This document shows, one piece after another, positions 47,489 through 60,867 of a stretch of 64,000 bases of DNA. The stretch spans positions 32,001 to 96,000 of the IMG/VR virus record IMGVR_UViG_3300028171_000090. One strand, given 5' to 3'. Under the pieces are notes generated by a model. The model did not search any database. It saw nothing but the letters and a program-made list of their open reading frames with translations, and was not told where the DNA came from. The DNA comes from a virus. Lineage: Duplodnaviria > Caudoviricetes. Made by a program: the position numbers and the translations under genes. Each line of letters opens with the position of its first letter. Within the stretch, counting starts at the first letter, position 1.

Positions 47489-47540
47489 TACAAGATAAAG
47501 TAAAAAGCTTTATCAATAATTTACTTGGAGGAATTATAAA

Positions 47541-49417: not shown

Positions 49418-49957
49418 ATGACTGAAACAATAGAGATGAAACGATATGTACTACAACGCATCTTAACAAATAATATAAAAGAAATTAAGAAGGCGTTACA
49501 TAATCCAAAATTAGAAATACTAACATCAGAAGAATTATCTACCATCGTTAACGGTGCTTCATGTGAAGAATTAAATGAAGCGACTGTTATTTTTTATATT
49601 GGAAACGCTGATATTTATCGTTTCGAACATAGTGCTACATATAATGAAAATCAATTCGTATATAAGGACGTACCTGAAGTGAAAAAAACGGTAACGTCTG
49701 CAAAAGTAGTACGACCAGTACTGACCGACATGTCAGTTGGTTTTAAACGAAAACAAACAACTCATCGTACTCAGACTGGACAAATGCGTGACACGTCCAC
49801 TTCAGATAATTGCAAATCTGTATTCGATGTAAACAAGTTACATGTAATAGAAACATATGAAATGGATAAGACAGTCAAAGAACATCCGTCTTATCACTAT
49901 AAAGAAGATAGTAAAGTGTATCTTCATATTTACATTCCAGAGAGTAGAATCCGTTAA
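49418..49957 (+). CDS. Array family A member
   Basis: VIFYIG ... LHIYIP. Confidence 0.75.
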   Translation: MTETIEMKRYVLQRILTNNIKEIKKALHNPKLEILTSEELSTIVNGASCEELNEATVIFYIGNADIYRFEHSATYNENQFVYKDVPEVKKTVTSAKVVRPVLTDMSVGFKRKQTTHRTQTGQMRDTSTSDNCKSVFDVNKLHVIETYEMDKTVKEHPSYHYKEDSKVYLHIYIPESRIR

Positions 49958-49979
49958 GGATTCTACTTTTCTTTTTTTT
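49941..49979 (+). terminator. Intrinsic terminator
   Basis: AGTAGAATCC-N5-GGATTCTACT plus T-tract. Confidence 0.8.
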
Positions 49980-50000
49980 CGTAATAAAGATATAATTGAC

Positions 50001-50019
50001 TATATATTATAATAGTGAG
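50001..50019 (+). promoter_or_regulatory. Putative early promoter
   Basis: TATATATTATAATAGTGAG. Confidence 0.75.
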
Positions 50020-50030
50020 CACCATAAAAA

Positions 50031-50092
50031 AAGGTTGAATGTTATCCATGAAACATTACCTACTCAATTAAAACTTGAGTAAGAAAAGGGGA
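50031..50092 (+). promoter_or_regulatory. Double-hairpin 5' leader (diverged copy)
   Basis: AGGT..AATGTT-ATCCATGA-AACATT-ACCT, then ACTCAA-N7-TTGAGT, then RBS. Confidence 0.5.
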
Positions 50093-50095
50093 ACT

Positions 50096-50560
50096 ATGAA
50101 ATCGATTAAAGTATCACCTTCTCAAAACAAGCCATCGGAAGAACTCACTTCTGAAATGATGGTATTGTTAAAAGAACACATTTCCGCAGGAAAGCTTTCT
50201 AAAAAGAACTTTGAAGTTCTTAAAGTCGAGTTAGCGAAAGGTGACATTTCAGAATTACATGTATACGATAAATATATTGACGATTACAACCGTTTCTGTG
50301 GCGGTGCATGTACGACAGTTTATCGTCAAGATATGGGATATGTATGGATTCAACGAGTAAAAGTATTGACATCGGATATTATTATCGGTGCAAATGATGA
50401 CTACGATGATCCTTTTAGTGTAGGATTATTATCCCAGGTATCAGGTCGTTGCAAACAAAATCAATTTGCAGCAACTGTAACATACAACCATAAGATTCGA
50501 AAGGATCAGAGAGTTACAAAAATTGTTGTTATTAAATCACTTCATGTGTATTTAGGTTAG
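50096..50560 (+). CDS. Array family A member
   Basis: ISELHVYD ... LHVYLG; start moved to ATG 50096. Confidence 0.75.
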   Translation: MKSIKVSPSQNKPSEELTSEMMVLLKEHISAGKLSKKNFEVLKVELAKGDISELHVYDKYIDDYNRFCGGACTTVYRQDMGYVWIQRVKVLTSDIIIGANDDYDDPFSVGLLSQVSGRCKQNQFAATVTYNHKIRKDQRVTKIVVIKSLHVYLG

Positions 50561-50566
50561 TAACAC

Positions 50567-50599
50567 CTAGGAGAAGGGTCCCCATACCCTCCCTCCTAG
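50567..50599 (+). promoter_or_regulatory. Hairpin with CCAT-containing loop (diverged copy)
   Basis: CTAGGAG-A-AGGGT-CCCCAT-ACCCT-CC-CTCCTAG, no T-tract. Confidence 0.5.
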
Positions 50600-50686
50600 C
50601 TTACAATATAGATATAAAAACTATGGTCCGATATACCAGACAAATATCATTCATACAATTAAAGATTGTATGAGGAGGAGAAACTT

Positions 50687-51196
50687 ATGTTAAAAATCGA
50701 TACGAATTCAATTTTAAGAGTAACCGATGAAGTGGTACAAACTTCAGGGGAAGAGTATAAACAAGCATTTTTAAATCAAGGATTATTAAATAAAACTGAA
50801 GCAAATATGCTACATGGTATTTACACTAATCCACAAAATAAATTTACACATGTACGAGTGTACTTTGGAACAGTGCAAGGTGAGTTCTTTGCTTATGATG
50901 CATGCACAGCTAAATTCCATACTACACATCAAACATTTGCAAAACGAAATAAAACAGTTGAAGTAACTGTTCAATTTGGTACTGTGACTAAAGGGACTGA
51001 ATCTATTGACCGTACTGGCGCTAACTTAGAGAATTCCAATATGGTTCAAGCTGGATTCAAAGCTACAGATGTAACAGCAACAATTACTATCGAACGATTA
51101 CATGAAACGTTTGGACAGCAACGTGCTGCAATTGCATTACCTGTAACAACATTAAATATCTATATTCCGCAAGAACGTTTACAAGAAAATAAATAA
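50687..51196 (+). CDS. Array family A member
   Basis: HVRVYFG ... LNIYIPQER; start moved to ATG 50687. Confidence 0.8.
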   Translation: MLKIDTNSILRVTDEVVQTSGEEYKQAFLNQGLLNKTEANMLHGIYTNPQNKFTHVRVYFGTVQGEFFAYDACTAKFHTTHQTFAKRNKTVEVTVQFGTVTKGTESIDRTGANLENSNMVQAGFKATDVTATITIERLHETFGQQRAAIALPVTTLNIYIPQERLQENK

Positions 51197-51208
51197 TAAA
51201 AACATATA

Positions 51209-51273
51209 AAGGTTTGAGGGTTGTCCATAACAACCCTTACTATCTAATGAAAAATTAGATAGCTAAGAGGAGA
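51209..51273 (+). repeat. Conserved double-hairpin leader, copy 1
   Basis: AAGGTT..AGGGTTGT-CCATA-ACAACCCT..CTATCTAAT-GAAAA-ATTAGATAG-CTAAGAGGAGA. Confidence 0.85.
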
Positions 51274-51278
51274 AAACA

Positions 51279-51800
51279 ATGATCGAAATGACTACAGCAG
51301 ACGTATTAGAAGTAACAGAAAAAGAGATTTTAGAAAAAGGTAATGAGTGGGTAAATCACTTCTTTACTTTAGATTACGTTACATCTAATGAATTAGAAGC
51401 TTTAATGAATGTATATCGTGCACATACTATTAACAAAGTTGAAGTATACTTTGGTGCACGACATGTTGAAGAGTTCCTATTTAACGGTTGCACACAAAAA
51501 GAAATTCGCATGAAGAAACCTGGTGAAGAAGAATCTCGTGTAGTGAATATCTTCCCAGTTGCAGAATTTGGTGCAGTTAGTTTAGGAAACTATGTTGAAG
51601 TAAATCGTAACACTGTTGTGCATTCACGACCAATGATTAACTTTGACAATATCAATGCTACAGTTTGTCATCATACAAGTCGTAAAACAGTTCGTCGATT
51701 TGAAGTTGGACCTCGTAATAGAGCTTCACATTCACATGAAATTGTATTGCGTGTATACATTCCACAAGAACGTGTACGTCCAGGTCATGAAGTAAAGTAA
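51279..51800 (+). CDS. Array family A member (close paralog of 51882)
   Basis: VNHFFTL.Y.TSNE, VEVYFG, LRVYIPQ. Confidence 0.85.
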   Translation: MIEMTTADVLEVTEKEILEKGNEWVNHFFTLDYVTSNELEALMNVYRAHTINKVEVYFGARHVEEFLFNGCTQKEIRMKKPGEEESRVVNIFPVAEFGAVSLGNYVEVNRNTVVHSRPMINFDNINATVCHHTSRKTVRRFEVGPRNRASHSHEIVLRVYIPQERVRPGHEVK

Positions 51801-51811
51801 TATTATATAAT

Positions 51812-51876
51812 AAGGTTCGAGGGCTGTCCATAACAGCCCTCACTATCTAATGAAAAATTGGATAGCTAAGAGGAGA
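51812..51876 (+). repeat. Conserved double-hairpin leader, copy 2 (compensatory change)
   Basis: AGGGCTGT-CCATA-ACAGCCCT..CTATCTAAT-GAAAA-ATTGGATAG-CTAAGAGGAGA. Confidence 0.85.
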
Positions 51877-51881
51877 CGGCA

Positions 51882-52382
51882 ATGATTAAATTAACTACAG
51901 AAAAAGTACTAACAGTACAACCTATCGATATTCAAGAAATGGGTGAAGAGTATGTGAATCACTTCTTTACCTTAGGCTATATCACTTCTAACGAGTTTGA
52001 TGTTTTATTAGATGTATTTAAAGACAAAGAAATCGATATTGTTGAAGTGTATTTCGGAGGACGTCATAACGAAGCATTCCGTTTACAAGGATGTACTGAG
52101 AAAGAAATTGTTCGAGAACATAAGACTACAAGTCGAACTGATACAGTTAAAATTGAACCTGTATTAAACGATGTGGAAGTTGGAAGATATGTCGAATACA
52201 ATCGTAAACCATTATCGACCAATCAATTACCAGCATTTAATGCAGATCATCTTACTGCTACGGTATGCTCCCATGTCGGTCGTGGAGCGACACGTGGTTT
52301 TGGAGGCATTGTCACTCCTCATTCTATCCCGAGTTTCAGAGCATTGCGAGTATATATTCCTCAGAGTCGTTTATCTGAGTAA
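51882..52382 (+). CDS. Array family A member
   Basis: VEVYFG ... LRVYIPQ. Confidence 0.85.
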   Translation: MIKLTTEKVLTVQPIDIQEMGEEYVNHFFTLGYITSNEFDVLLDVFKDKEIDIVEVYFGGRHNEAFRLQGCTEKEIVREHKTTSRTDTVKIEPVLNDVEVGRYVEYNRKPLSTNQLPAFNADHLTATVCSHVGRGATRGFGGIVTPHSIPSFRALRVYIPQSRLSE

Positions 52383-52389
52383 TATAATG

Positions 52390-52422
52390 AAAGGTAGGTT
52401 CATTCCTACCTTTTATTTTTTT
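52390..52422 (+). terminator. Intrinsic terminator
   Basis: AAGGTAGG-N6-CCTACCTT plus T-tract. Confidence 0.75.
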
Positions 52423-52481
52423 GTCTGTTTTACTATGCTCCTGACCGTAAATCTATGTTCCGTAATAACCCCCTTTTCAGT

Positions 52482-52500
52482 TACATATTATATTAGTGAA
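52482..52500 (+). promoter_or_regulatory. Putative early promoter
   Basis: TACATATTATATTAGTGAA. Confidence 0.6.
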
Positions 52501-52540
52501 TACATCAAAACTATACTAATTATAAAGGGGATTTATTATT

Positions 52541-52852
52541 ATGAAAAAATTTACTGACTCAGAATTTTCAAGATTTATGCAGGAGAACGAAGCTTATGTT
52601 AACGGTACAATCATTAGAACTGGTATCTTAACTAAATTTGAAGTAGAAGAATTATTTGACGAAGTTACTTTAACTGACGATGTTGAGAACGTTATCTTCT
52701 ATACTGGTTTCAAAGATGGTGCAGCCTTTAAAGCCGCCGTTGAAGTACATGTCGTCCATCCATTAGATATCACCAAAGTATTTAAAGATAGGACAATCCA
52801 CATATTCATACCGCAGATGCGTATCATGAAGAGTGGATTAGGAGTAGCCTAA
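52541..52852 (+). CDS. Array family A, minimal member (103 aa)
   Basis: VIFYTG ... IHIFIPQ with very short middle. Confidence 0.75.
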   Translation: MKKFTDSEFSRFMQENEAYVNGTIIRTGILTKFEVEELFDEVTLTDDVENVIFYTGFKDGAAFKAAVEVHVVHPLDITKVFKDRTIHIFIPQMRIMKSGLGVA

Positions 52853-52874
52853 TTCTAGGTTATTCCTTTTTTTT
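52840..52874 (+). terminator. Intrinsic terminator
   Basis: GGAGTAGCCT/AGGTTATTCC (GU pairs) plus T8. Confidence 0.65.
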
Positions 52875-52910
52875 GTCTCCATTATGAACTCCCCACCCAT
52901 CTTCACTCTT

Positions 52911-52922
52911 AACAATATATTG
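52911..52922 (+). promoter_or_regulatory. Putative late promoter AACA-N6-TG for endolysin
   Basis: AACAATATATTG immediately followed by hairpin TGAGACAA-CAAAC-TTGTCTCA. Confidence 0.6.
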
Positions 52923-52968
52923 AGACAACAAACTTGTCTCATATCTTACTTAAAAGGAGTGGATATAT

Positions 52969-54015
52969 ATGGGTTTCATCGTTGATATTTCCCATCATAA
53001 TACTGTAGATTGGTCTTTAGCTAGTAAATACTTAGACTTAGCAATCATTCGTGTCCAATACGGTTCTAACACGGTTGATAGAAAGTATAAGTCTTTCGTT
53101 GAAGGCTGTAAACAATACGGTATTCCTTTCGGTCACTATGCATATGCTTTATTCGTAAGCGTCGAAGATGCTCGTGTGGAAGCACGTGACTTCATGAAAC
53201 GTGCGGATAAAGATGCGAAGTTCTTAGTTGTCGATGTAGAAGAATTGACAATCAAAGGACGCCCTGATTTAATGCTTCCTGCTACACAAGCTTACGTTGA
53301 TGAGTTACGTAAAGCAGGATGGAAAGTTGGCTTATACACTGGTCATCACGTATGGGATGAATTCCGTATGGATAAAGTGGATGCTGACTTCGTTTGGGTA
53401 CCACGTTACGGAGCTAACAAATCTCCTAACCCAGATGGTCCTAAACCAAAAATGCGTGTAGATATTTGGCAATATACTGAGTACGGTAACATTCCAGGTA
53501 TCCAAACACGTTCTGATGTAAATATGCTATTAGGTGATAAAACACTTGAATGGTATACTGGAGCGAGTGTTCCAACACCACCTCCAAGCATTGCACCTGA
53601 CAGTGGTAGTCTTGTTGATAAAAACGCAGGTCTTCCAATTGGTCGTGTAAAAGTAACTGGCACTGGTGTACGTTTACGTGAACAGCCATCTACAAATTCA
53701 AGAATCGTTAAAACACTTGATAAACTTGAGTATTTATACTACGGTTATGTCAAAGGTGAAGACGGTTACATTTGGTGGAACTTAGGTTCTGGATGGGTTC
53801 GTTCTGACGTAGGTGGAGACTTTATTTCTGGTGGAGCTGTAGTAACAGCATCTGTATTAAATGTACGTACAGGTCCAGGAACAAACTTCTCTATTAAGAA
53901 ACAACTTACAAGCGGTGCACAAGTACGCGTTTGGACACGTCAAGGTGATTGGTACTGCATCAATGATGACGAATGGGTTCATGGTGCATATATCACAGTT
54001 CGTGATAAATACTAA
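52969..54015 (+). CDS. Endolysin: GH25 muramidase (PlyB-like) + Pro-rich linker + two SH3b domains
   Basis: VDISHH, LVVDVEE, WQYT, DVN; VRLREQPST and LNVRTGPGT SH3b starts. Confidence 0.93.
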   Translation: MGFIVDISHHNTVDWSLASKYLDLAIIRVQYGSNTVDRKYKSFVEGCKQYGIPFGHYAYALFVSVEDARVEARDFMKRADKDAKFLVVDVEELTIKGRPDLMLPATQAYVDELRKAGWKVGLYTGHHVWDEFRMDKVDADFVWVPRYGANKSPNPDGPKPKMRVDIWQYTEYGNIPGIQTRSDVNMLLGDKTLEWYTGASVPTPPPSIAPDSGSLVDKNAGLPIGRVKVTGTGVRLREQPSTNSRIVKTLDKLEYLYYGYVKGEDGYIWWNLGSGWVRSDVGGDFISGGAVVTASVLNVRTGPGTNFSIKKQLTSGAQVRVWTRQGDWYCINDDEWVHGAYITVRDKY

Positions 54016-54017
54016 GA

Positions 54018-54050
54018 AAGAGAGTAGACTTCGGTCTACTCTTCTTTTTT
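54018..54050 (+). terminator. Intrinsic terminator (UUCG loop)
   Basis: GAGTAGAC-TTCG-GTCTACTC plus T-tract. Confidence 0.85.
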
Positions 54051-54108
54051 GTCATTTTTTAGAAATCATCCTACATTATATTGAGAAACCTTAGAGGAGG
54101 AAATAGAA

Positions 54109-54684
54109 ATGACGACAGACTTACATAAGGCTGAGAAAGTATATGAAAATATTCGCTTAGAGAATATAGATAAAGGACTTAATAAAATTACAAAATTATG
54201 TAGAGATGGCTCATTACTACATGAGCATCATGATATTATCTTAGATAGACTCGCACAAGGTGAAAAGGTTATCGATAGTATTGCAATCTTCGAAGGTCAG
54301 AATGATATGTTTACATTTATCGATGAGGCTACAAACAAGCACATATCTCGAATTGGTGTAAAACCATTCGATTCATTTGATACTCATAAAGTTACAGTAT
54401 TATTTGGAACTTATCAACCTAAAACAAGAAAAATTAAAAACTTTGCATATATGAATCGTAATGGTGTTATGCAAACTGAAATTATGGAATCATGTACCGC
54501 TTGTGATGAAGATGGTGTAGCAATTCCAATGTTTATAAATAATGTTATTATATGCGAAGTAGAAGTAGAAATAGCTACACGCCCAAATAATGAAATGCAA
54601 TGGTATAAACCTGCTGACGTTATGGGTGTTTACCGACATATTATGGTATATGTACCAACTACAGAAAAGGGAGAGAATAAATAA
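54109..54684 (+). CDS. Array family A member
   Basis: IDSIAIFEG ... IMVYVP. Confidence 0.75.
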   Translation: MTTDLHKAEKVYENIRLENIDKGLNKITKLCRDGSLLHEHHDIILDRLAQGEKVIDSIAIFEGQNDMFTFIDEATNKHISRIGVKPFDSFDTHKVTVLFGTYQPKTRKIKNFAYMNRNGVMQTEIMESCTACDEDGVAIPMFINNVIICEVEVEIATRPNNEMQWYKPADVMGVYRHIMVYVPTTEKGENK

Positions 54685-55289
54685 TGATTACACTATCAAA
54701 AGAACTTACATTACAACATATCGAGAAGGACGGGCTGGATAAATTCCTTCCTAAGAATTCATCATTACACTTCTCACAAGATCATACAGATGCAATTAAA
54801 ACATTACTACAAGATGATACATATGGACTTAAATTAGTACACTTATACGATGGTGGGGATTGCTCATTATTCTCGAAGGACTTCTTAGACTTCGCATTTA
54901 AGTGTATTGATATGGATGAAACAGTTCCTACGAATATGCAATACCCTGTGGGAGAAGTTCCAAATATCTCTGAAATTATTGGTAATAAAACTACCACTCG
55001 ACGAGTGGATATCGTTAAGGGTGCTGACGCTATTCTTAAAGGTAATAAATGTATCCATACGTCACAGAAAATGACACATACTGGACAATTGGAAATCATG
55101 ACAACTACATCCGAAAAACTTACTAAGTTCCCGGGTAAAAAAGAGATTATTATTGCACTAGTAAAAGATTATGAATCTCATCGTATATTTGCAGAACGCT
55201 CTGCTACAAGTACGAAACCTGAATACTCATTACATATTCTAATGCCAGGTACCTTATTTGAAGAATTTACAGAAAGTGAGGAGAACTAG
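54684..55289 (+). CDS. Array family A member
   Basis: LVHLYDG ... LHILMP. Confidence 0.75.
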   Translation: MITLSKELTLQHIEKDGLDKFLPKNSSLHFSQDHTDAIKTLLQDDTYGLKLVHLYDGGDCSLFSKDFLDFAFKCIDMDETVPTNMQYPVGEVPNISEIIGNKTTTRRVDIVKGADAILKGNKCIHTSQKMTHTGQLEIMTTTSEKLTKFPGKKEIIIALVKDYESHRIFAERSATSTKPEYSLHILMPGTLFEEFTESEEN

Positions 55290-55290
55290 T

Positions 55291-55830
55291 ATGCATATAT
55301 TTGGAGACGGACTAGAACATATTGGTCAATTAATAAAAACAATGCAAGCACGATATGATCACATGGTAGAGAATAATATCATATCGGAAATGGATAGAAA
55401 TATTACAGCTACATTACTGAAGAACTTATCATCTGATAAGTTTCTTCGTTTTGTATATCATCATAAAGATGATATTAACTCTCAAGAAATGTCTATCACT
55501 GACGTATTATATAATGAAAAGTATTACGGTAAAAATGATGAGTGTATGGAGATGTCAAGTATCTTTGTAAAGGCTATTGATAGTGATATTGAATTTGGTG
55601 ATAAGCATATTCGCCAGACAGTAGAGACTATTTTTGGTAAAACACGTCAGACTCTCATTGCTGATACAGATAAAGAATTTGAGAACTTTGATATTGAGAA
55701 GCCTCATATCTTTATTAGAACAATTACTCGTTGCGTAAAAGAGTTAACTACAGGAAAAGAGCATGATGAAGTGTATAATGAACTACATGTATATCAGCCT
55801 AATATTAACCCTACAATTCCAGTAGAATAA
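55291..55830 (+). CDS. Array family A member
   Basis: LRFVYH ... LHVYQP; start moved to ATG 55291. Confidence 0.7.
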   Translation: MHIFGDGLEHIGQLIKTMQARYDHMVENNIISEMDRNITATLLKNLSSDKFLRFVYHHKDDINSQEMSITDVLYNEKYYGKNDECMEMSSIFVKAIDSDIEFGDKHIRQTVETIFGKTRQTLIADTDKEFENFDIEKPHIFIRTITRCVKELTTGKEHDEVYNELHVYQPNINPTIPVE

Positions 55831-55855
55831 AAAACGTAACAAATGTGTATTCAGT

Positions 55856-55874
55856 CATACATTATATTAGTGAG
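55856..55874 (+). promoter_or_regulatory. Putative early promoter
   Basis: CATACATTATATTAGTGAG. Confidence 0.75.
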
Positions 55875-55887
55875 TAAGCCATTAATA

Positions 55888-55948
55888 AAGGTTTTAGGGT
55901 TGTCCATAACAACCCTCCCCCATACTTATAAGGTATGGAGATAAGGAG
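55888..55948 (+). repeat. Conserved double-hairpin leader, copy 3
   Basis: AAGGTT..AGGGTTGT-CCATA-ACAACCCT, then a different second stem CCATAC-N7-GTATGG, then AAGGAG. Confidence 0.8.
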
Positions 55949-55955
55949 CTAAGAA

Positions 55956-56426
55956 ATGGAATTATACGTAAGAGAAGAACTTATGAAGTACAATGAATCT
56001 ATGATCCCGCATGGCGGATTAATGAAAGATTCAGAAAAGAAAGTATTAGTTTCACACTTAAAGAAGAATGATGATATCACAGGAGTTCGCTTCTTCTTTG
56101 GGAATGGAGAGTTATCGCCATTCAAGAAACTAGCGTGCTATGACAGTAACTTTAAACAAACGTCTGACCGAATGGAAATGCGTCGTATTAAAGTCTTATC
56201 AGGTAACGTGTCAGTAGGAAAAGTGGAAGACTCAGTCTATCCAAAGTATCAACCCAATAGTGAAAAACGAAGCGAATGCTTCGTTGATTCTAATCAGTTT
56301 ACTATGACCCTAGCAGAAGATTTAGTTGGAGTTATACATGCTGACAAAATGAAATATAGAGGCGATGGAAGTATTATGTATATACACATTCCAGAGAATC
56401 GCATTCTGCAAGCAGAACAGGGATAA
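55956..56426 (+). CDS. Array family A member
   Basis: ITGVRFFFG ... MYIHIPENR. Confidence 0.75.
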   Translation: MELYVREELMKYNESMIPHGGLMKDSEKKVLVSHLKKNDDITGVRFFFGNGELSPFKKLACYDSNFKQTSDRMEMRRIKVLSGNVSVGKVEDSVYPKYQPNSEKRSECFVDSNQFTMTLAEDLVGVIHADKMKYRGDGSIMYIHIPENRILQAEQG

Positions 56427-56472
56427 AGCTAAAAGCTTTATCCTACTAATTTATTTGAGGAGAGATATTACA

Positions 56473-56973: not shown

Positions 56974-57043
56974 GTTTATCAATGGTAACACCGGATGGAG
57001 ATAAAACTCCATCCGATAATATAATAGAAAGAGGTTATTAAAA

Positions 57044-58806: not shown

Positions 58807-60867
58807 ATGTCAATTAAAAACATTAAAGAGCAGATGCTAGAGTTAGATCGAAAGTATGAAGGAAAAGATGACATTCTAGGAAAGAATGTATTGACGATGG
58901 CGAATCGTACAAACTCATCTCGTGCAATCATGGTAAGTAGTCAGTTAGATCAGAACGTAGTTCTACTGAATCCAGAGATTCCGAAGATGTATACCAACTA
59001 TGAGAATATAGTTGGAGAATTTAGTTCTGCTTATTATCGAGCGGAAGCACAATTAGTCGTGGTAGGAAAAATTCAGAAGTTTGAAGATAATCCTGACCAC
59101 TTATATACATTACTCGTATTCAATACAGAAACACAAAAGTTCGATGTTATTGAAAAGAGAAGTAATGAACGCTTAACAGAGTCTTACGGGTATAAATATA
59201 ATACTCAGAAATTAGACTCAAAGGAAATAGATGATACAATTGAAGCAGGTGAAGTATTATTTAGCAGTACTTCATTTGATGAAAATATGAACTATCGTTA
59301 TGGTATCAATGTAAACTGTATGTATGGTATTGATAACCGAACGATAGAGGATGCGATTGTTATATCAGAATCTCTTCGAGATGGATTAAAGTCTATCGAA
59401 GTAGAGAACGTTCGCATCTCACTAAATGATAATGACCTTCTCATCAATATGTATGGAGGGGAAGATGGATATCGAGCATTCCCTGATATTGGAGAGATGA
59501 TTAATAAAGATACAATCTTGGCTTGTAAGCGTCGAATTACATACTCTCAATCTCTATATGATTTAAAGTATGAAAATATGCAGAAGCCTAACTTTAGAAA
59601 TGATACAACGTTCTATGCACAAGGAAAAGTAGTTGATATTAATATCTATTGTAATAAACCATATGACGAAATTCCAAAAGCAAAGTACAATAAACAAATT
59701 ATGAAATACTACGATAATGAATTACGTTATCATAGAGAAGTCGTACAAACGCTTGGAGAGATTATGAAGACTGGTCAATATACAGAAGACCTAGACTTTA
59801 TGTACAAGCGTTCGAAAGATATCTTAGACCCAACTTGTAGTTGGAAAGATAGCAATAACTCAACATTCAGTAACATGGTTATTGAGTTCGTTGTTGAGAA
59901 AGAATCTGGTGTTACAATCGGACAAAAACTTACAGGACGCTTCGGTGACAAAGGGGTTATCAGTCAGATTGTTCCTGATGATGAAATGCCTTTCACAGAA
60001 ACAGGTCTTCGTGTAGATGCCATATTCAACGTTCTAGGTGTTGTTAACCGTTTAAATCCAGGTCAGTTATATGAAGTGGAGTTAAATTTTATTGGACACC
60101 GAGTAAGAGAACGATTAGCAGAAATGGCATCATTAACTGATAAAGAAAACTTCTTATTCGATATCATTAATGATATTAATACAACTCAGGCTAATGCATT
60201 AATTAACTATTATTCACCATTAGCTGAGGATGAGAAGCTTGCCTTCTTTGAAGATATTGATAAGAATGGTATCATGATACATCAACCACCGATGTATGAT
60301 AATATGACACTTGATAAGTTTGAGTTTATTTATGACAAGTATGGATTCGAACCATATACTTGCTATGTAAACAAATTTGGTCGCAAGATCAAAATGCTAA
60401 ACAAAGTTGTTGTAGGAAGCAAATATATTCTGAAGTTGAAACATACACCGAAAGGTAAGTTCTCAACTCGTAGTACCGGATACTCAAACAGTAAAGACCT
60501 ACCATCTAAGTCTATTGCAAATAAACATCATCGTTCTATTTATCAAAAGACACCAGTACGTGTAGGGGAAATGGAGTATTCTAACTTACTGATGACACAA
60601 CGACCAGACCTATTAGCGTATATGTCTATGCTATATAGTACGTCTGTAATCGGTCGTCGTGATACAGGTCAGTTATATGAAAACAATGTATTAGATTTAG
60701 AGAATATTGAAATGTCAGATAATGCAAAGAACCGTGCAGCAGAGATTGCAACAGTGTACTTAAAGTCTATTGGTATCGGATTAGAATTCGAGATTGAAGA
60801 CGGGGAAGAAGTAGCTGATGAAACTCAATTAAACGGGGTTGTATTTGAAGATGAAGATGAGGAGTAG
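58807..60867 (+). CDS. rpoB: Multisubunit RNA polymerase beta subunit, C-terminal half (probably non-virion RNAP)
   Basis: SSRAIM, EDAIVISE, GQKLTGRFGDKGVISQIVPDDEMP, NRLNPGQLYE, GSKYILKLKH, RVGEME. Confidence 0.93.
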   Translation: MSIKNIKEQMLELDRKYEGKDDILGKNVLTMANRTNSSRAIMVSSQLDQNVVLLNPEIPKMYTNYENIVGEFSSAYYRAEAQLVVVGKIQKFEDNPDHLYTLLVFNTETQKFDVIEKRSNERLTESYGYKYNTQKLDSKEIDDTIEAGEVLFSSTSFDENMNYRYGINVNCMYGIDNRTIEDAIVISESLRDGLKSIEVENVRISLNDNDLLINMYGGEDGYRAFPDIGEMINKDTILACKRRITYSQSLYDLKYENMQKPNFRNDTTFYAQGKVVDINIYCNKPYDEIPKAKYNKQIMKYYDNELRYHREVVQTLGEIMKTGQYTEDLDFMYKRSKDILDPTCSWKDSNNSTFSNMVIEFVVEKESGVTIGQKLTGRFGDKGVISQIVPDDEMPFTETGLRVDAIFNVLGVVNRLNPGQLYEVELNFIGHRVRERLAEMASLTDKENFLFDIINDINTTQANALINYYSPLAEDEKLAFFEDIDKNGIMIHQPPMYDNMTLDKFEFIYDKYGFEPYTCYVNKFGRKIKMLNKVVVGSKYILKLKHTPKGKFSTRSTGYSNSKDLPSKSIANKHHRSIYQKTPVRVGEMEYSNLLMTQRPDLLAYMSMLYSTSVIGRRDTGQLYENNVLDLENIEMSDNAKNRAAEIATVYLKSIGIGLEFEIEDGEEVADETQLNGVVFEDEDEE

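Follow-up and report, generated by a model that had tools for sequence, protein, structure and literature searches.

Hairpins in the leaders of phage mRNAs are familiar as RNA operators, among them the MS2/R17 and PP7 coat-protein operators, the T4 gp43 operator and the lambda/P22 boxB hairpin bound by N. Hairpins that proteins recognise, such as the MS2/PP7 operators and lambda boxB, are characterised by a fixed loop and fixed closing pairs above a lower stem that need only pair, and in the boxA-boxB arrangement a short conserved single-stranded box lies just upstream of the hairpin. The element described here shares these features and the position in the mRNA leader, but its loop and stem sequences are unrelated to those of the known operators. 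It also differs in its many occurrences per genome, each of them before a member of one paralog family, in the distance of 38–51 nt from hairpin 1 to the start codon, which leaves the ribosome-binding site uncovered, and in belonging to a phage that transcribes with its own multisubunit polymerases, the cognate protein here being only hypothetical.

The operon maturation sites of Bacillus subtilis at cggR-gapA and glnRA, where RNase Y and then RNase J1 act and a downstream hairpin stabilises the cleaved product (PMC11780869), have in common with the element a post-stop intercistronic position, an AU-rich stretch and a strong hairpin. These host sites have only a weak motif and no conserved loop, whereas the tip and GGUU box of the element are invariant and its cleavage is hypothetical. 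The PeSLs of T4-type phages, early promoter plus stem-loop motifs that flank ORFans and recombine (PMC2839356), likewise form repeated promoter-plus-hairpin cassettes before small orphan genes in a variable region, with cassette gain, loss and replacement and breakpoints in the repeat (PMC2839356, PMC4122927). Their hairpins are G/C-rich terminators at or before sigma-70 promoters and have been discussed as DNA homology patches, whereas the hairpin here lies inside the leader, has no U-tract and covaries as an RNA does, G·U pairs included. The put RNA of HK022 also has two adjacent stem-loops in the nascent transcript downstream of early promoters. It works on host RNA polymerase for terminator read-through, once per early operon; the element has no terminators to suppress, a different polymerase, intercistronic copies and no similarity in sequence or size.

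The source of the DNA is an uncultured soil giant phage, a relative of Bacillus phage AR9. The window is the whole stretch of 64,000 nucleotides analysed, part of the 125-kb record examined, and it was compared with six sister contigs that are close to it and one sister phage that is more distant (L105, MTEU01002083.1). The motif has no match in Rfam, and a comparison of Rfam with the window gave no family at the gathering score and only chance-level rows up to an E value of 5. It was not found in AR9, BpSp or LPJP1, nor among 185,000 host genomes. The element is an RNA motif that is new in itself and of a known kind.

Anatomy of the element and its copies

The element, a structured RNA specific to this lineage, occupies the 5' leaders and intercistronic spacers of one early-gene family. 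From 5' to 3' it consists of an A-rich single strand, a GGUU(U) box, a spacer of 2–3 nt, hairpin 1 and, directly after it, hairpin 2. Hairpin 1 is a helix of 8–10 bp in which the lower half can have any sequence and the top three pairs (U-A, G-C and U-A) are fixed below the pentaloop CCAUA. Hairpin 2 is free in sequence, usually has an A-rich loop and ends 3–15 nt before the Shine-Dalgarno (SD) sequence. The parts fixed across versions are the tip, UGU-CCAUA-ACA, and the GGUU(U) box 2–3 nt upstream. Every copy lies on the coding strand, preceded by a stop codon or promoter and followed by the SD. The strong copies and the genes of the array are as follows.

50096–50560, 50687–51196, 51279–51800 and 51882–52382, + strand: four tandem 'YIP-tail' genes, each preceded by a module
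51209–51239, + strand: module copy 1, with AAGGUU; hairpin 1 core at 51217–51237, 10 bp if extended; loop CCAUA at 51225–51229
51240–51262, + strand: hairpin 2 of copy 1, CUAUCUAAU / GAAAA / AUUAGAUAG
51812–51841, + strand: module copy 2, with AAGGUU; hairpin 1 core at 51820–51840, with a C-G swap
51843–51865, + strand: hairpin 2 of copy 2, with U·G at 51848/51860; AUG at 51882
55888–55916, + strand: module copy 3, with AAGGUU; hairpin 1 core at 55896–55916, identical to copy 1
55920–55938, + strand: hairpin 2 of copy 3, CCAUACUU / AUA / AGGUAUGG; AUG at 55956
55956–56426, + strand: 'YIP-tail' paralog served by copy 3

The three copies that the first-pass annotation had placed at 51209, 51812 and 55888 are real. 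The sequence AGGGYTGTCCATAACARCCCT has exactly three matches, all on the + strand (51217–51237, 51820–51840 and 55896–55916), with none expected by chance (100 shuffles) and no further match elsewhere in the 125-kb record. In RNAfold the double hairpin is both the minimum free energy and the centroid structure of copies 1 (z = -4.7) and 2 (z = -4.5). Copy 1 scores 52.5 bits with the covariance model and is followed by an SD at 51266–51272 and an AUG at 51279, and the module of copy 3 is 100% conserved in L078, L079, L081, L082, L083 and L104. The box AAGGTT is found at all three positions (51209, 51812 and 55888) but is not a fixed sequence, as it also appears as ACGGTT, ATGGTT and TTGGTT and is better described as GGUU(U). 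Similarly, the CCAUA loop, previously called invariant, is kept in the strong copies of all genomes examined, but is relaxed to CCAUG, CCAAU or CCA in promoter-proximal versions and is replaced by ACAAA in one L105 copy.

Most copies lie 14–27 nt downstream of a predicted AR9-type early promoter; copies 1 and 2 lie between cistrons and have no recognisable promoter. The remaining features of the locus are listed here.

50004–50017, + strand: predicted early-type promoter of the four-gene operon 50096–52382, ATATTAT-N6-G, predicted +1 at 50017
50031–50057, + strand: promoter-proximal module, AAGGUU followed by the hairpin AAUGUU / AUCCAUGA / AACAUU
50061–50081, + strand: hairpin 2 of the 50031 leader, loop UUAAAAC, ending 8 nt before the SD
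50567–50599, + strand: composite hairpin, outer CUAGGAG/CUCCUAG, inner AGGGU/ACCCU, loop CCCCAU
50625–50648, + strand: degenerate module before gene 50687, GGUC-C, then GAUAU / ACCAGACAA / AUAUC
50650–50674, + strand: hairpin 2 of the 50625 leader, 11 bp, loop AAA, overlapping the SD
52386–52417, + strand: intrinsic terminator at the end of the operon, which also forms the right-hand boundary of a cassette swap
55859–55872, + strand: predicted promoter before copy 3, ACATTAT-N6-G, +1 at about 55872

The promoter at 50004–50017 fits the genome's own early consensus, ACTAT-ACATTAT-ATAGGT-G, and matches the AR9 early consensus AAATATATATTAT-N6-G, and the promoter before copy 3 also fits the AR9 late form ACA-N6-TA, with +1 at 55869 (PMC5312081). 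Diverged versions of the module had been proposed at 50031 and 50567. The covariance model, applied over relatives as the annotation had suggested, recovered the 50031 copy as a true member (43.3 bits, E about 3e-6); at the orthologous positions of L081, L082 and L078 the stems are different, with the GGUU and the CCA(U) loop kept. The structure at 50567–50599, in contrast, is a separate composite hairpin that receives no score from the model. It lies directly 3' of the stop codon of 50096–50560, folds as predicted and is conserved in L081 and L082, and its relationship to the module is uncertain. The degenerate module at 50625–50648, which had been overlooked, has its homologue in the L078 leader of the orthologous gene (AUGGUUA GAUAU..CCAAU..AUAUC; 39 bits).

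No T-run follows any of the three exact copies, whereas real terminators nearby (49940, 52386, 52840 and 54020) have one, which bears out the earlier statement that the hairpins are not terminators. The accompanying analogy to put RNA found no support. A nut- or put-like action on the phage RNA polymerase (antitermination, pausing or processivity) would suit the two adjacent hairpins that closely follow promoters in copy 3, in most L105 copies and in the one at 50031, as well as the U-GAAAA-A pentaloop in hairpin 2 of copies 1 and 2, which resembles the loop of lambda nutL boxB. However, copy 3 and the promoter-proximal versions lack the GAAAA loop, copies 1 and 2 have no recognisable promoter, and there are no terminators between the served genes, the true ones at 52386, 52840 and 54020 ending units normally. 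The phage has its own RNA polymerases, the window gave no match to an Rfam family, and the element goes with a gene family rather than with operon starts, making such a transcriptional role very unlikely.

Covariation and strand of selection

Aligning 19 distinct versions found in the window and in sister phages gives 94.6% paired cells, although all genomes compared belong to one narrow lineage and many of the counted cells are non-independent events. Both sides have changed in five of the eight pairs of hairpin 1 (29 cells), and the outer 4–5 base pairs vary freely yet stay complementary. The covariation score is 0.576, compared with 0.21 for shuffles (0 of 500 reach the observed value) and at most 0.22 for slid registers. 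L105 alone has the outer stems AGGG/CCCU, AACU/AGUU, UAUA/UAUA, ACUA/UAGU and AUAG/CUAU, all surrounding an unchanged UUGU-CCAUA-ACAA. The compensatory swap from U-A to C-G reported for copy 2 is genuine (51824/51836). Its U·G intermediate is present in L078, L082 has a G·U pair there, and G·U pairs are also present in L105 and L188. In hairpin 2, the A-to-G change noted in copy 2 (51860) indeed retains a U·G pair, as does an A-to-G change in L082 and L104 in copy 3, and copy 1 differs from its L105 ortholog by three compensatory double changes and several G·U steps. The second stem of copy 3 is, as first described, unrelated in sequence to those of copies 1 and 2. As these pairs would read as C·A mismatches on the opposite strand, selection acts on the sense-strand RNA. 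The aligned sequences clearly show an RNA structure under selection on the sense strand, and the same comparison shows sequence constraint on the tip and the GGUU box. The leaders compared are far more alike than the genes they precede: protein identity is 43% between the genes of copies 1 and 2 and about 16% between those of copies 1 and 3, and hairpin 1 before these diverged genes is identical or differs in one pair. The initial proposal of a cis-regulatory RNA with a recognised loop is strongly supported by the covariation, the G·U intermediates, the strand bias and the position before the ribosome-binding site.

A signal at the DNA level is highly improbable, whether as a palindromic operator TTGT-N5-ACAA for a dimeric protein or as an extruded single-stranded hairpin like the N4-type promoter previously considered. 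The invariant core is a perfect 4+5+4 inverted repeat, and in AR9-type late promoters an AACA element is read on the template strand (PMC5312081). However, a duplex operator has no need of outer arms that are complementary despite their free sequence, several copies contain G·T positions, the asymmetric spacer CCATA never changes its orientation with respect to the gene, and the spacing does not fit the late form AACA-N6-T-A/G, with -1/+1 reading, for example, AC, CC or GT. In N4 the promoter hairpins carry 3-nt loops and precede the start site; the hairpins here have 5-nt loops, tolerate G·U pairs and lie downstream of recognisable early promoters. A short leader peptide, with AAAGG as SD and the frame UUG UCC AUA ACA... 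giving M-S-I-T-..., is scarcely credible. AAAGG is positioned 8 nt before UUG in copies 1 and 3, the 50031 copy has AUG, and CC-AU is in one frame, but the putative start codon is changed to CUG in copy 2 and compensated in the stem. The frame lengths differ widely, and beyond S-I-T the residues vary freely from copy to copy (T-L, K-F, I-Y, I-V and T-I), since the changes are base-pair compensatory and not synonymous.

The gene family served and exchange of cassettes

The genes served are orphan paralogs with a '...YIPxxR' tail, and those at 50096–52382 have no Pfam or PHROG match. Every member recovered by the model (window, L078–L083, L104, L105 and L188) precedes a 'YIP-tail' gene, including the one at a remote locus in a 230-kb sister genome, and no module is present at the roughly ten other early-promoter units of the 125-kb record. 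The element travels with the 'YIP-tail' family only. Gene 52541 has no module in the window, whereas its L105 ortholog has one, indicating that the module is dispensable for at least one family member.

Comparison of the window with the L080/L079 strain shows 100% identity over 50000–51250 and 52400–56200 and a replaced cassette between them, with the left breakpoint inside module 1, between the GGUU box and the hairpin 2 loop, and the right breakpoint at the terminator. Leader 2 and gene 51882 are present or missing as one block, and array gene content varies among sisters. This exchange is what would be expected if promoter and hairpin were kept, like a PeSL, as a homology patch for cassette swap, duplication or deletion, with the RNA fold secondary. 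We consider such a linker quite unlikely: homology exchange needs no complementary arms, G·U covariation, fixed strand or position before the SD, and PeSL stem-loops are terminators at or upstream of the promoter, whereas the hairpins here lie in the leader without U-tracts. Crossovers are expected at any conserved patch, and the breakpoint may result from conservation rather than cause it. Identity of the tip among paralogous leaders could be aided by recombination or gene conversion, demonstrated between cassettes here.

A candidate docking site

The module could act as a passive processing or 5'-stabiliser module with no dedicated factor. An RNase Y-type cut in the A-rich strand, or a start just upstream, would place hairpin 1 at the 5' end, where it would block RNase J1 and uncouple the stabilities of the cistrons. 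The layout fits the B. subtilis maturation sites, with an AU-rich unstructured stretch containing G, a strong hairpin and a post-stop position (PMC11780869). In addition, other transcripts of this phage have a hairpin at their very beginning, about +2 relative to the predicted start (the endolysin, 52921–52941, and the unit at 78447), the array has other intercistronic hairpins without U-tracts (47494, 56420 and 56992), and AR9 5' ends respond poorly to TEX (PMC5312081). However, a passive stabiliser needs a stable helix only, which accounts neither for the invariant loop, three closing pairs and GGUU box nor for the limitation to a single gene family, and about 15–27 nt of single strand would precede the hairpin in the primary transcripts of copy 3 and most L105 copies. 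We consider a purely passive role rather doubtful.

We favor, with confidence that is about evenly balanced, a sequence-specific operator hairpin for a candidate trans-acting factor that controls early-mRNA stability or translation. The fixed tip and GGUU box would form the putative docking site for one such factor, which may be a phage or host RNA-binding protein, or a nuclease. Hairpin 1 overlaps neither the SD nor the AUG, and simple blocking of these sites by a bound protein is therefore not an obvious mechanism. Hairpin 2 would most likely be a generic insulator or 5' stabiliser beside the ribosome-binding site. The L105 copy lacking the CCAUA loop and the degenerate promoter-proximal versions speak against the operator reading. 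For the phage, the signal is probably a docking site for a factor controlling the 'YIP-tail' messages, which would coordinately set the stability and/or translation of these early mRNAs, for example by shutting them off later in infection, or by a cut in the A-rich stretch after which the hairpin would cap and protect the downstream message.

The hairpin module and the genes it precedes

A 125-kb IMG/VR virus record, rated as about half complete, is the source of the window, which reads its minus strand and encodes a split RNA-polymerase beta subunit (58807-60867) with ~40% identity to that of Bacillus phages AR9 and PBS1. A DNA search of INPHARED returned no close relatives among the deposited phages and distant matches from the endolysin only, and together these results identify the source, by sequence, as an uncultured jumbo phage and a distant relative of the AR9 group. 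Sequencing runs containing it carry the label soil metagenome. AR9/PBS1-like jumbo phages use two RNA polymerases of their own, and to our knowledge post-transcriptional control in these phages is essentially unexplored. The modules described here sit in an array of ~18 small, strongly diverged paralogs that have in common the motif VYFG..F..AC at the N terminus and the tail '..hYIPxxR' at the C terminus (the 'YIP-tail' family). Pfam and PHROG hold no family for these paralogs, and single-protein searches of IMG/VR and INPHARED with the downstream genes gave no relatives. A profile of the paralogs run against a 5.8-billion-protein collection retrieved a handful of proteins, whose contigs are the syntenic sisters L078-L083 and L104 (80-97% DNA identity). 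A more distant sister, L105, was added by a search with the polymerase subunit (78% RNAP identity) and has the same array-endolysin-array layout as the window; a metagenome pattern scan recovered the matching 230-kb genome MTEU01002083.1 (L145, L188). The 'YIP-tail' protein encoded at 51279-51800 gave a confident structure model (pLDDT 91.4) with an N-terminal strand, helices on either side of a short strand, and a long six-strand antiparallel sheet. No informative structural neighbor was found for the model (Foldseek best E-value 0.02; VIA-align Z <=4.1 against the PDB; TM <=0.40 against the ESM Atlas). Several ssRNA-phage coat proteins aligned over the beta-sheet at Z 3.0-3.5, far below a meaningful level, and were rejected as fold matches. 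As modeled, the fold gives no indication of what the module regulates.

Each module comprises a GGUU(U) box, hairpin 1 with the tip UGU-CCAUA-ACA, and hairpin 2, ahead of the Shine-Dalgarno sequence. The modules in the window and the predicted promoters belonging to them are as follows:

50004-50017, plus strand, predicted early promoter at the start of the operon 50096-52382
50031, plus strand, diverged module ahead of gene 50096-50560
50625, plus strand, degenerate module ahead of gene 50687-51196
51209, plus strand, strong module (copy 1) ahead of gene 51279-51800
51812, plus strand, strong module (copy 2) ahead of gene 51882-52382
55859-55872, plus strand, predicted promoter of copy 3
55888, plus strand, module (copy 3) ahead of gene 55956-56426

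The 21-mer AGGGYTGTCCATAACARCCCT occurs in three copies, all on the plus strand (51217, 51820, and 55896), where 0 are expected by chance, and the 125-kb record holds no further copies. AAGGTT stands ahead of all three, and a second hairpin follows after 0-3 nt, then the Shine-Dalgarno sequence, with the start codon 38-51 nt beyond hairpin 1. For copies 1 and 2 RNAfold gave the double hairpin as both the MFE and the centroid structure (z = -4.7 and -4.5), and it returned both hairpins for copy 3 too. Hairpin 1 has the pentaloop CCAUA on a stem of 8-10 bp; the loop of hairpin 2 is GAAAA in copies 1 and 2 only, with AUA or UUAAAAC in its place in other copies. The first-pass annotation had described a double hairpin in three copies, an observation that is confirmed and strengthened by the chance expectation, the fold z-scores, and the covariation presented below. 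Its list of leaders served holds for 50031, 51209, 51812, and 55888, and it had missed the degenerate module at 50625. A pseudoknot between the GG of the box and the CC of the loop is sterically conceivable but would span only 2-3 bp and, both partners being invariant, can show no covariation. A tRNA-like reading of GGTTCGA was rejected, as ARAGORN returned nothing and other copies carry GGUUUG or GGUUUU at this position. A leader peptide was likewise rejected: the change in its start codon is compensated within the stem, and the residues after it are not conserved. An intrinsic terminator is a G+C-rich hairpin with a U-tract directly after it. A T-run is absent after every module hairpin and present at the four real terminators (49940, 52386, 52840, and 54020), in agreement with the earlier view that the modules are not terminators.

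Covariation of the stems and constancy of the tip

Across 19 distinct sequences aligned to the covariance model, an alignment that is fitted to the model and drawn from genomes of one lineage, so that cells are not independent events, 94.6% of the cells are paired and 5/8 pairs show changes on both sides (29 cells). The set scores 0.576 for covariation, compared with 0.21 ± 0.03 in shuffles (0/500 reaching it) and <=0.22 when the registers are slid. Covariation is seen in the five outer pairs. The three loop-proximal pairs (U-A, G-C, and U-A) are never replaced by another pair type; of the 19 rows 4, 4, and 0 lack the pair (with 3 gaps), all of them degenerate versions at the promoter-proximal position. 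Among the main-type copies, those that are not promoter-proximal, CCAUA is retained in all except one, L105 3909 (ACAAA). L105 carries six to seven modules, for which UUGU-CCAUA-ACAA is recorded as unchanged throughout, and its outer four pairs read AGGG/CCCU, AACU/AGUU, UAUA/UAUA, ACUA/UAGU, AUAG/CUAU, or AAUG/UAUU. The promoter-proximal position of the operon is occupied by three unrelated stems depending on the strain (AAUGUU, GACAU, and GAUAU), all of which follow GGUU and enclose a CCA(U) loop. The compensatory U-A to C-G swap noted earlier in copy 2 is supported by a U·G intermediate in L078, and the neighboring pair is G·U in L082. Hairpin 2 passes from A-U to G·U to G-C across the sister series and differs by three double changes between copy 1 and its L105 ortholog. 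Despite the model-fitted alignment and the single lineage, the covariation pattern is unambiguous, and the selected object is the sense-strand RNA, because a G·U pair is a C·A mismatch on the opposite strand and all copies are oriented like the genes. The analysis shows an RNA fold under selection, with the sequence of the tip and of GGUU constrained and a link to one early gene family. The general reading as a cis-acting RNA, proposed in the first-pass annotation, is thus supported by covariation, G·U pairs, and uniform strand.

Among DNA-level readings a duplex operator was rejected. N4-type ssDNA hairpin promoters, which had been offered as an alternative, lie upstream of the start site, where the template strand forms a 5-7 bp stem with a 3-nt loop. 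In contrast, the module has a 5-nt loop and a stem of 8-10 bp, tolerates G·T, and lies downstream of recognizable early promoters, and this reading is not upheld. The suggested likeness to the antitermination RNA put of HK022 fares no better. A lambdoid nut site contains boxB, a 5-bp stem with a GNRA-like pentaloop, GAAAA or GAAGA, and works with an N-type arginine-rich antiterminator and downstream terminators, whereas the loop of hairpin 1 is CCAUA and GAAAA is confined to hairpin 2 of copies 1 and 2. There are no terminators between the genes served, and so none to overcome, and the element is tied to a gene family, not to an operon; put/nut-type antitermination was set aside as very unlikely on the last two grounds.

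Promoter context, distribution, and exchange between strains

Early promoters of AR9 have the form AAATATATATTAT-N6-G(+1) and late promoters the form AACA-N6-T-A/G(+1) (PMC5312081). A homologue of the early form, ACTAT-ACATTAT-ATAGGT-G(+1)A, is found at a dozen sites in the whole 125-kb record (G000, window-frame -30623 to 83590), and late-type AACA-N6-TG sites are also present, for example upstream of the endolysin. Promoters within the array carry a TAGTG variant of this early consensus. The four-gene operon begins at its predicted early promoter, has one module ahead of each gene, and ends at the terminator at 52386. Predicted early-type promoters lie 14-27 nt upstream of the 50031 copy, copy 3 (~20 nt), four L105 copies, and L188; most L105 and L188 modules are 14-17 nt downstream of such a promoter, counted from predicted starts. 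Copies 1 and 2 are without a clear promoter. The AAAGGU-U box of the module resembles the ATAGGT-G tail of the early promoter, so that a promoter plus 5'-terminal hairpin may be the ancestor of the module. Over the 125-kb record covariance model R2 found only the four known copies, with the module absent from the other early units. All members found in any genome precede a 'YIP-tail' gene; in the sister genome one of these genes stands alone at a remote locus, next to a DNA-polymerase-like gene.

Beyond the sister phages no member was recognized. With covariance model R1 there was no credible member in AR9, BpSp, Listeria phage LPJP1, or two IMG/VR relatives with 36% RNAP identity, the top score (28.7 bits) falling within the AR9 portal gene, and there was none in the relative L106 (56% RNAP identity). 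Rfam 15 gave no matches over the whole window at gathering thresholds, and for 49950-52450 with E up to 5 only chance-level rows (e.g. freshwater-2, 22.8 bits against a threshold of 49.9). Pattern scans of IMG/VR were discarded: a loose 15-base pattern gave 71 matches, all by chance and none in a GGTT context; a 19-base pattern gave a single chance match in a G+C-rich coding region; and the core pattern GGTTT-N4-6-TTGTCCATAACAA gave two unrelated coding-sequence families with non-complementary flanks. In JGI/ENA metagenomes the core pattern returned the sister phages and a handful of unrelated hairpins, about as many as chance predicts, two of them ordinary terminators. In 185,579 prokaryote genomes it gave 62 scattered matches, none a host mimic or in a regulatory context. 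The motif, like the gene family, thus appears confined so far to this uncultured soil phage lineage. Pairing of the module with the small-RNA arrays of the phage, whose box is AGACTATGC, was rejected (mean duplex energy -13.1 versus -13.9 kcal/mol for random genome windows). The stretch is present in 20 soil RNA runs as assembled contigs only, and the four examined show flat depth with no ends and no joints. In all four of these assemblies contigs end at 55423-55520 and new ones begin at 55509-55570, within gene 55291-55830 and beside a terminator-like hairpin with a T-run (55422-55443); this break may be an internal terminator, a low-coverage spot, or an assembly effect.

Compared with the L080/L079 strain the window is 100% identical over 50000-51250 and 52400-56200. 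Between these flanks (51250-52400) the window carries two genes, 51279 and 51882, with leader 2 between them, whereas the other strain has a single gene, whose product shares 72% identity with that of gene 51279. Identity to L080 is 100% up to module 1, then 72-88%, and returns at the terminator, placing the left breakpoint within module 1, between the GGUU box and the hairpin 2 loop, and the right breakpoint at the terminator. The GGUU box differs in L079, not in L080. Leader 2 and its gene are present or absent as one unit. The leader of a 103-aa family gene (52487-52540) lacks the module in the window lineage and has it in full in L105 (4509-4594, ACUAUUGU-CCAUA-ACAAUAGU), which shows that individual leaders gain or lose modules. 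In the JGI contig L080, at 540-800, the promoter and terminator region is present as an inverted copy and the alternative first gene (L081 type) lies on the opposite strand; two strains were probably joined there into a chimeric assembly. The strain-to-strain swap has a parallel in the PeSL cassettes of T4-type phages (PMC2839356). [quoted passage not shown] Unlike PeSL, the stem-loop does not look like a terminator or attenuator, having no U-tract and forming part of the leader of the downstream gene. The breakpoint in the module is taken to result from conservation and to reflect a possible second role, not the primary function, because recombination leaves the RNA-type covariation unexplained.

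A candidate docking site and its significance

Hairpins recognized by proteins typically have a fixed loop and fixed closing pairs over a free lower stem. Hairpin 1 has this form, its loop and closing pairs being fixed in sequence and its lower stem free but paired. By analogy, we give about an even chance to the module being a docking site for one trans-acting factor governing stability or translation of early mRNAs; the fixed tip would be read by this single factor, which would set the stability or translation of the 'YIP-tail' mRNAs. The main rival is passive. In Bacillus operon maturation, RNase Y cleaves within an AU-rich stretch, and the product is shielded from RNase J1 by a hairpin downstream of the cut (PMC11780869). 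This would be the nearest physiological model, with the module hairpin acting as a stabilizer after an RNase Y cut, and it gains from other transcripts of the phage that start with a hairpin at +2 (52921; 78447). A docking site is nevertheless favored, because a mere mRNA-stabilizing helix needs no fixed loop and closing pairs; the passive version is rather unlikely, though it may well be part of the truth.

The two hairpins at ~+2 of predicted starts belong to the endolysin unit (52921-52941), downstream of AACA-N6-TG, and to the unit at 78447 (G000 window-frame 78459-78480), after ACATTAT-N6-G, and they point to 5'-terminal hairpins as a general feature of mRNAs of this phage. The array also contains intercistronic hairpins without a U-tract and with A-rich loops, at 47494-47514, 56420-56444, and 56992-57015 (loops AAAAA, AAA, and AUAAAA). 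AAAA(G) is found in the loop of most module second hairpins as well, and several A-loop hairpins lie in the leader of another family gene (window-frame 76000-76186).

A further version, which we consider improbable, is that the 'YIP-tail' proteins themselves bind the UGU-CCAUA-ACA tip through their conserved N- and C-terminal ends, giving family-wide feedback, with the module doubling as a crossover point. The proteins would then bind their own leaders and those of their paralogs. If so, a self-contained gene-cassette system would use the hairpin as an address tag shared by the family, and the hairpin would combine, in a jumbo phage of the Gram-positive world, the roles of RNA operator and PeSL-like shuffling linker.

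As an RNA motif the module is new, of a familiar kind, and narrow in distribution. It offers a clean, compact, covariation-backed handle, a free helix capped by a 13-nt invariant tip, which marks a single large orphan family of early genes, and the hairpin could be used as a pull-down bait and a portable tag. If a factor reads the motif, that factor would regulate the early phase, in which the host is taken over. An RNA-level constraint and a cassette-swap breakpoint coincide here, which provides a concrete case of regulatory repeats shaping hyperplastic regions outside the T4 group.
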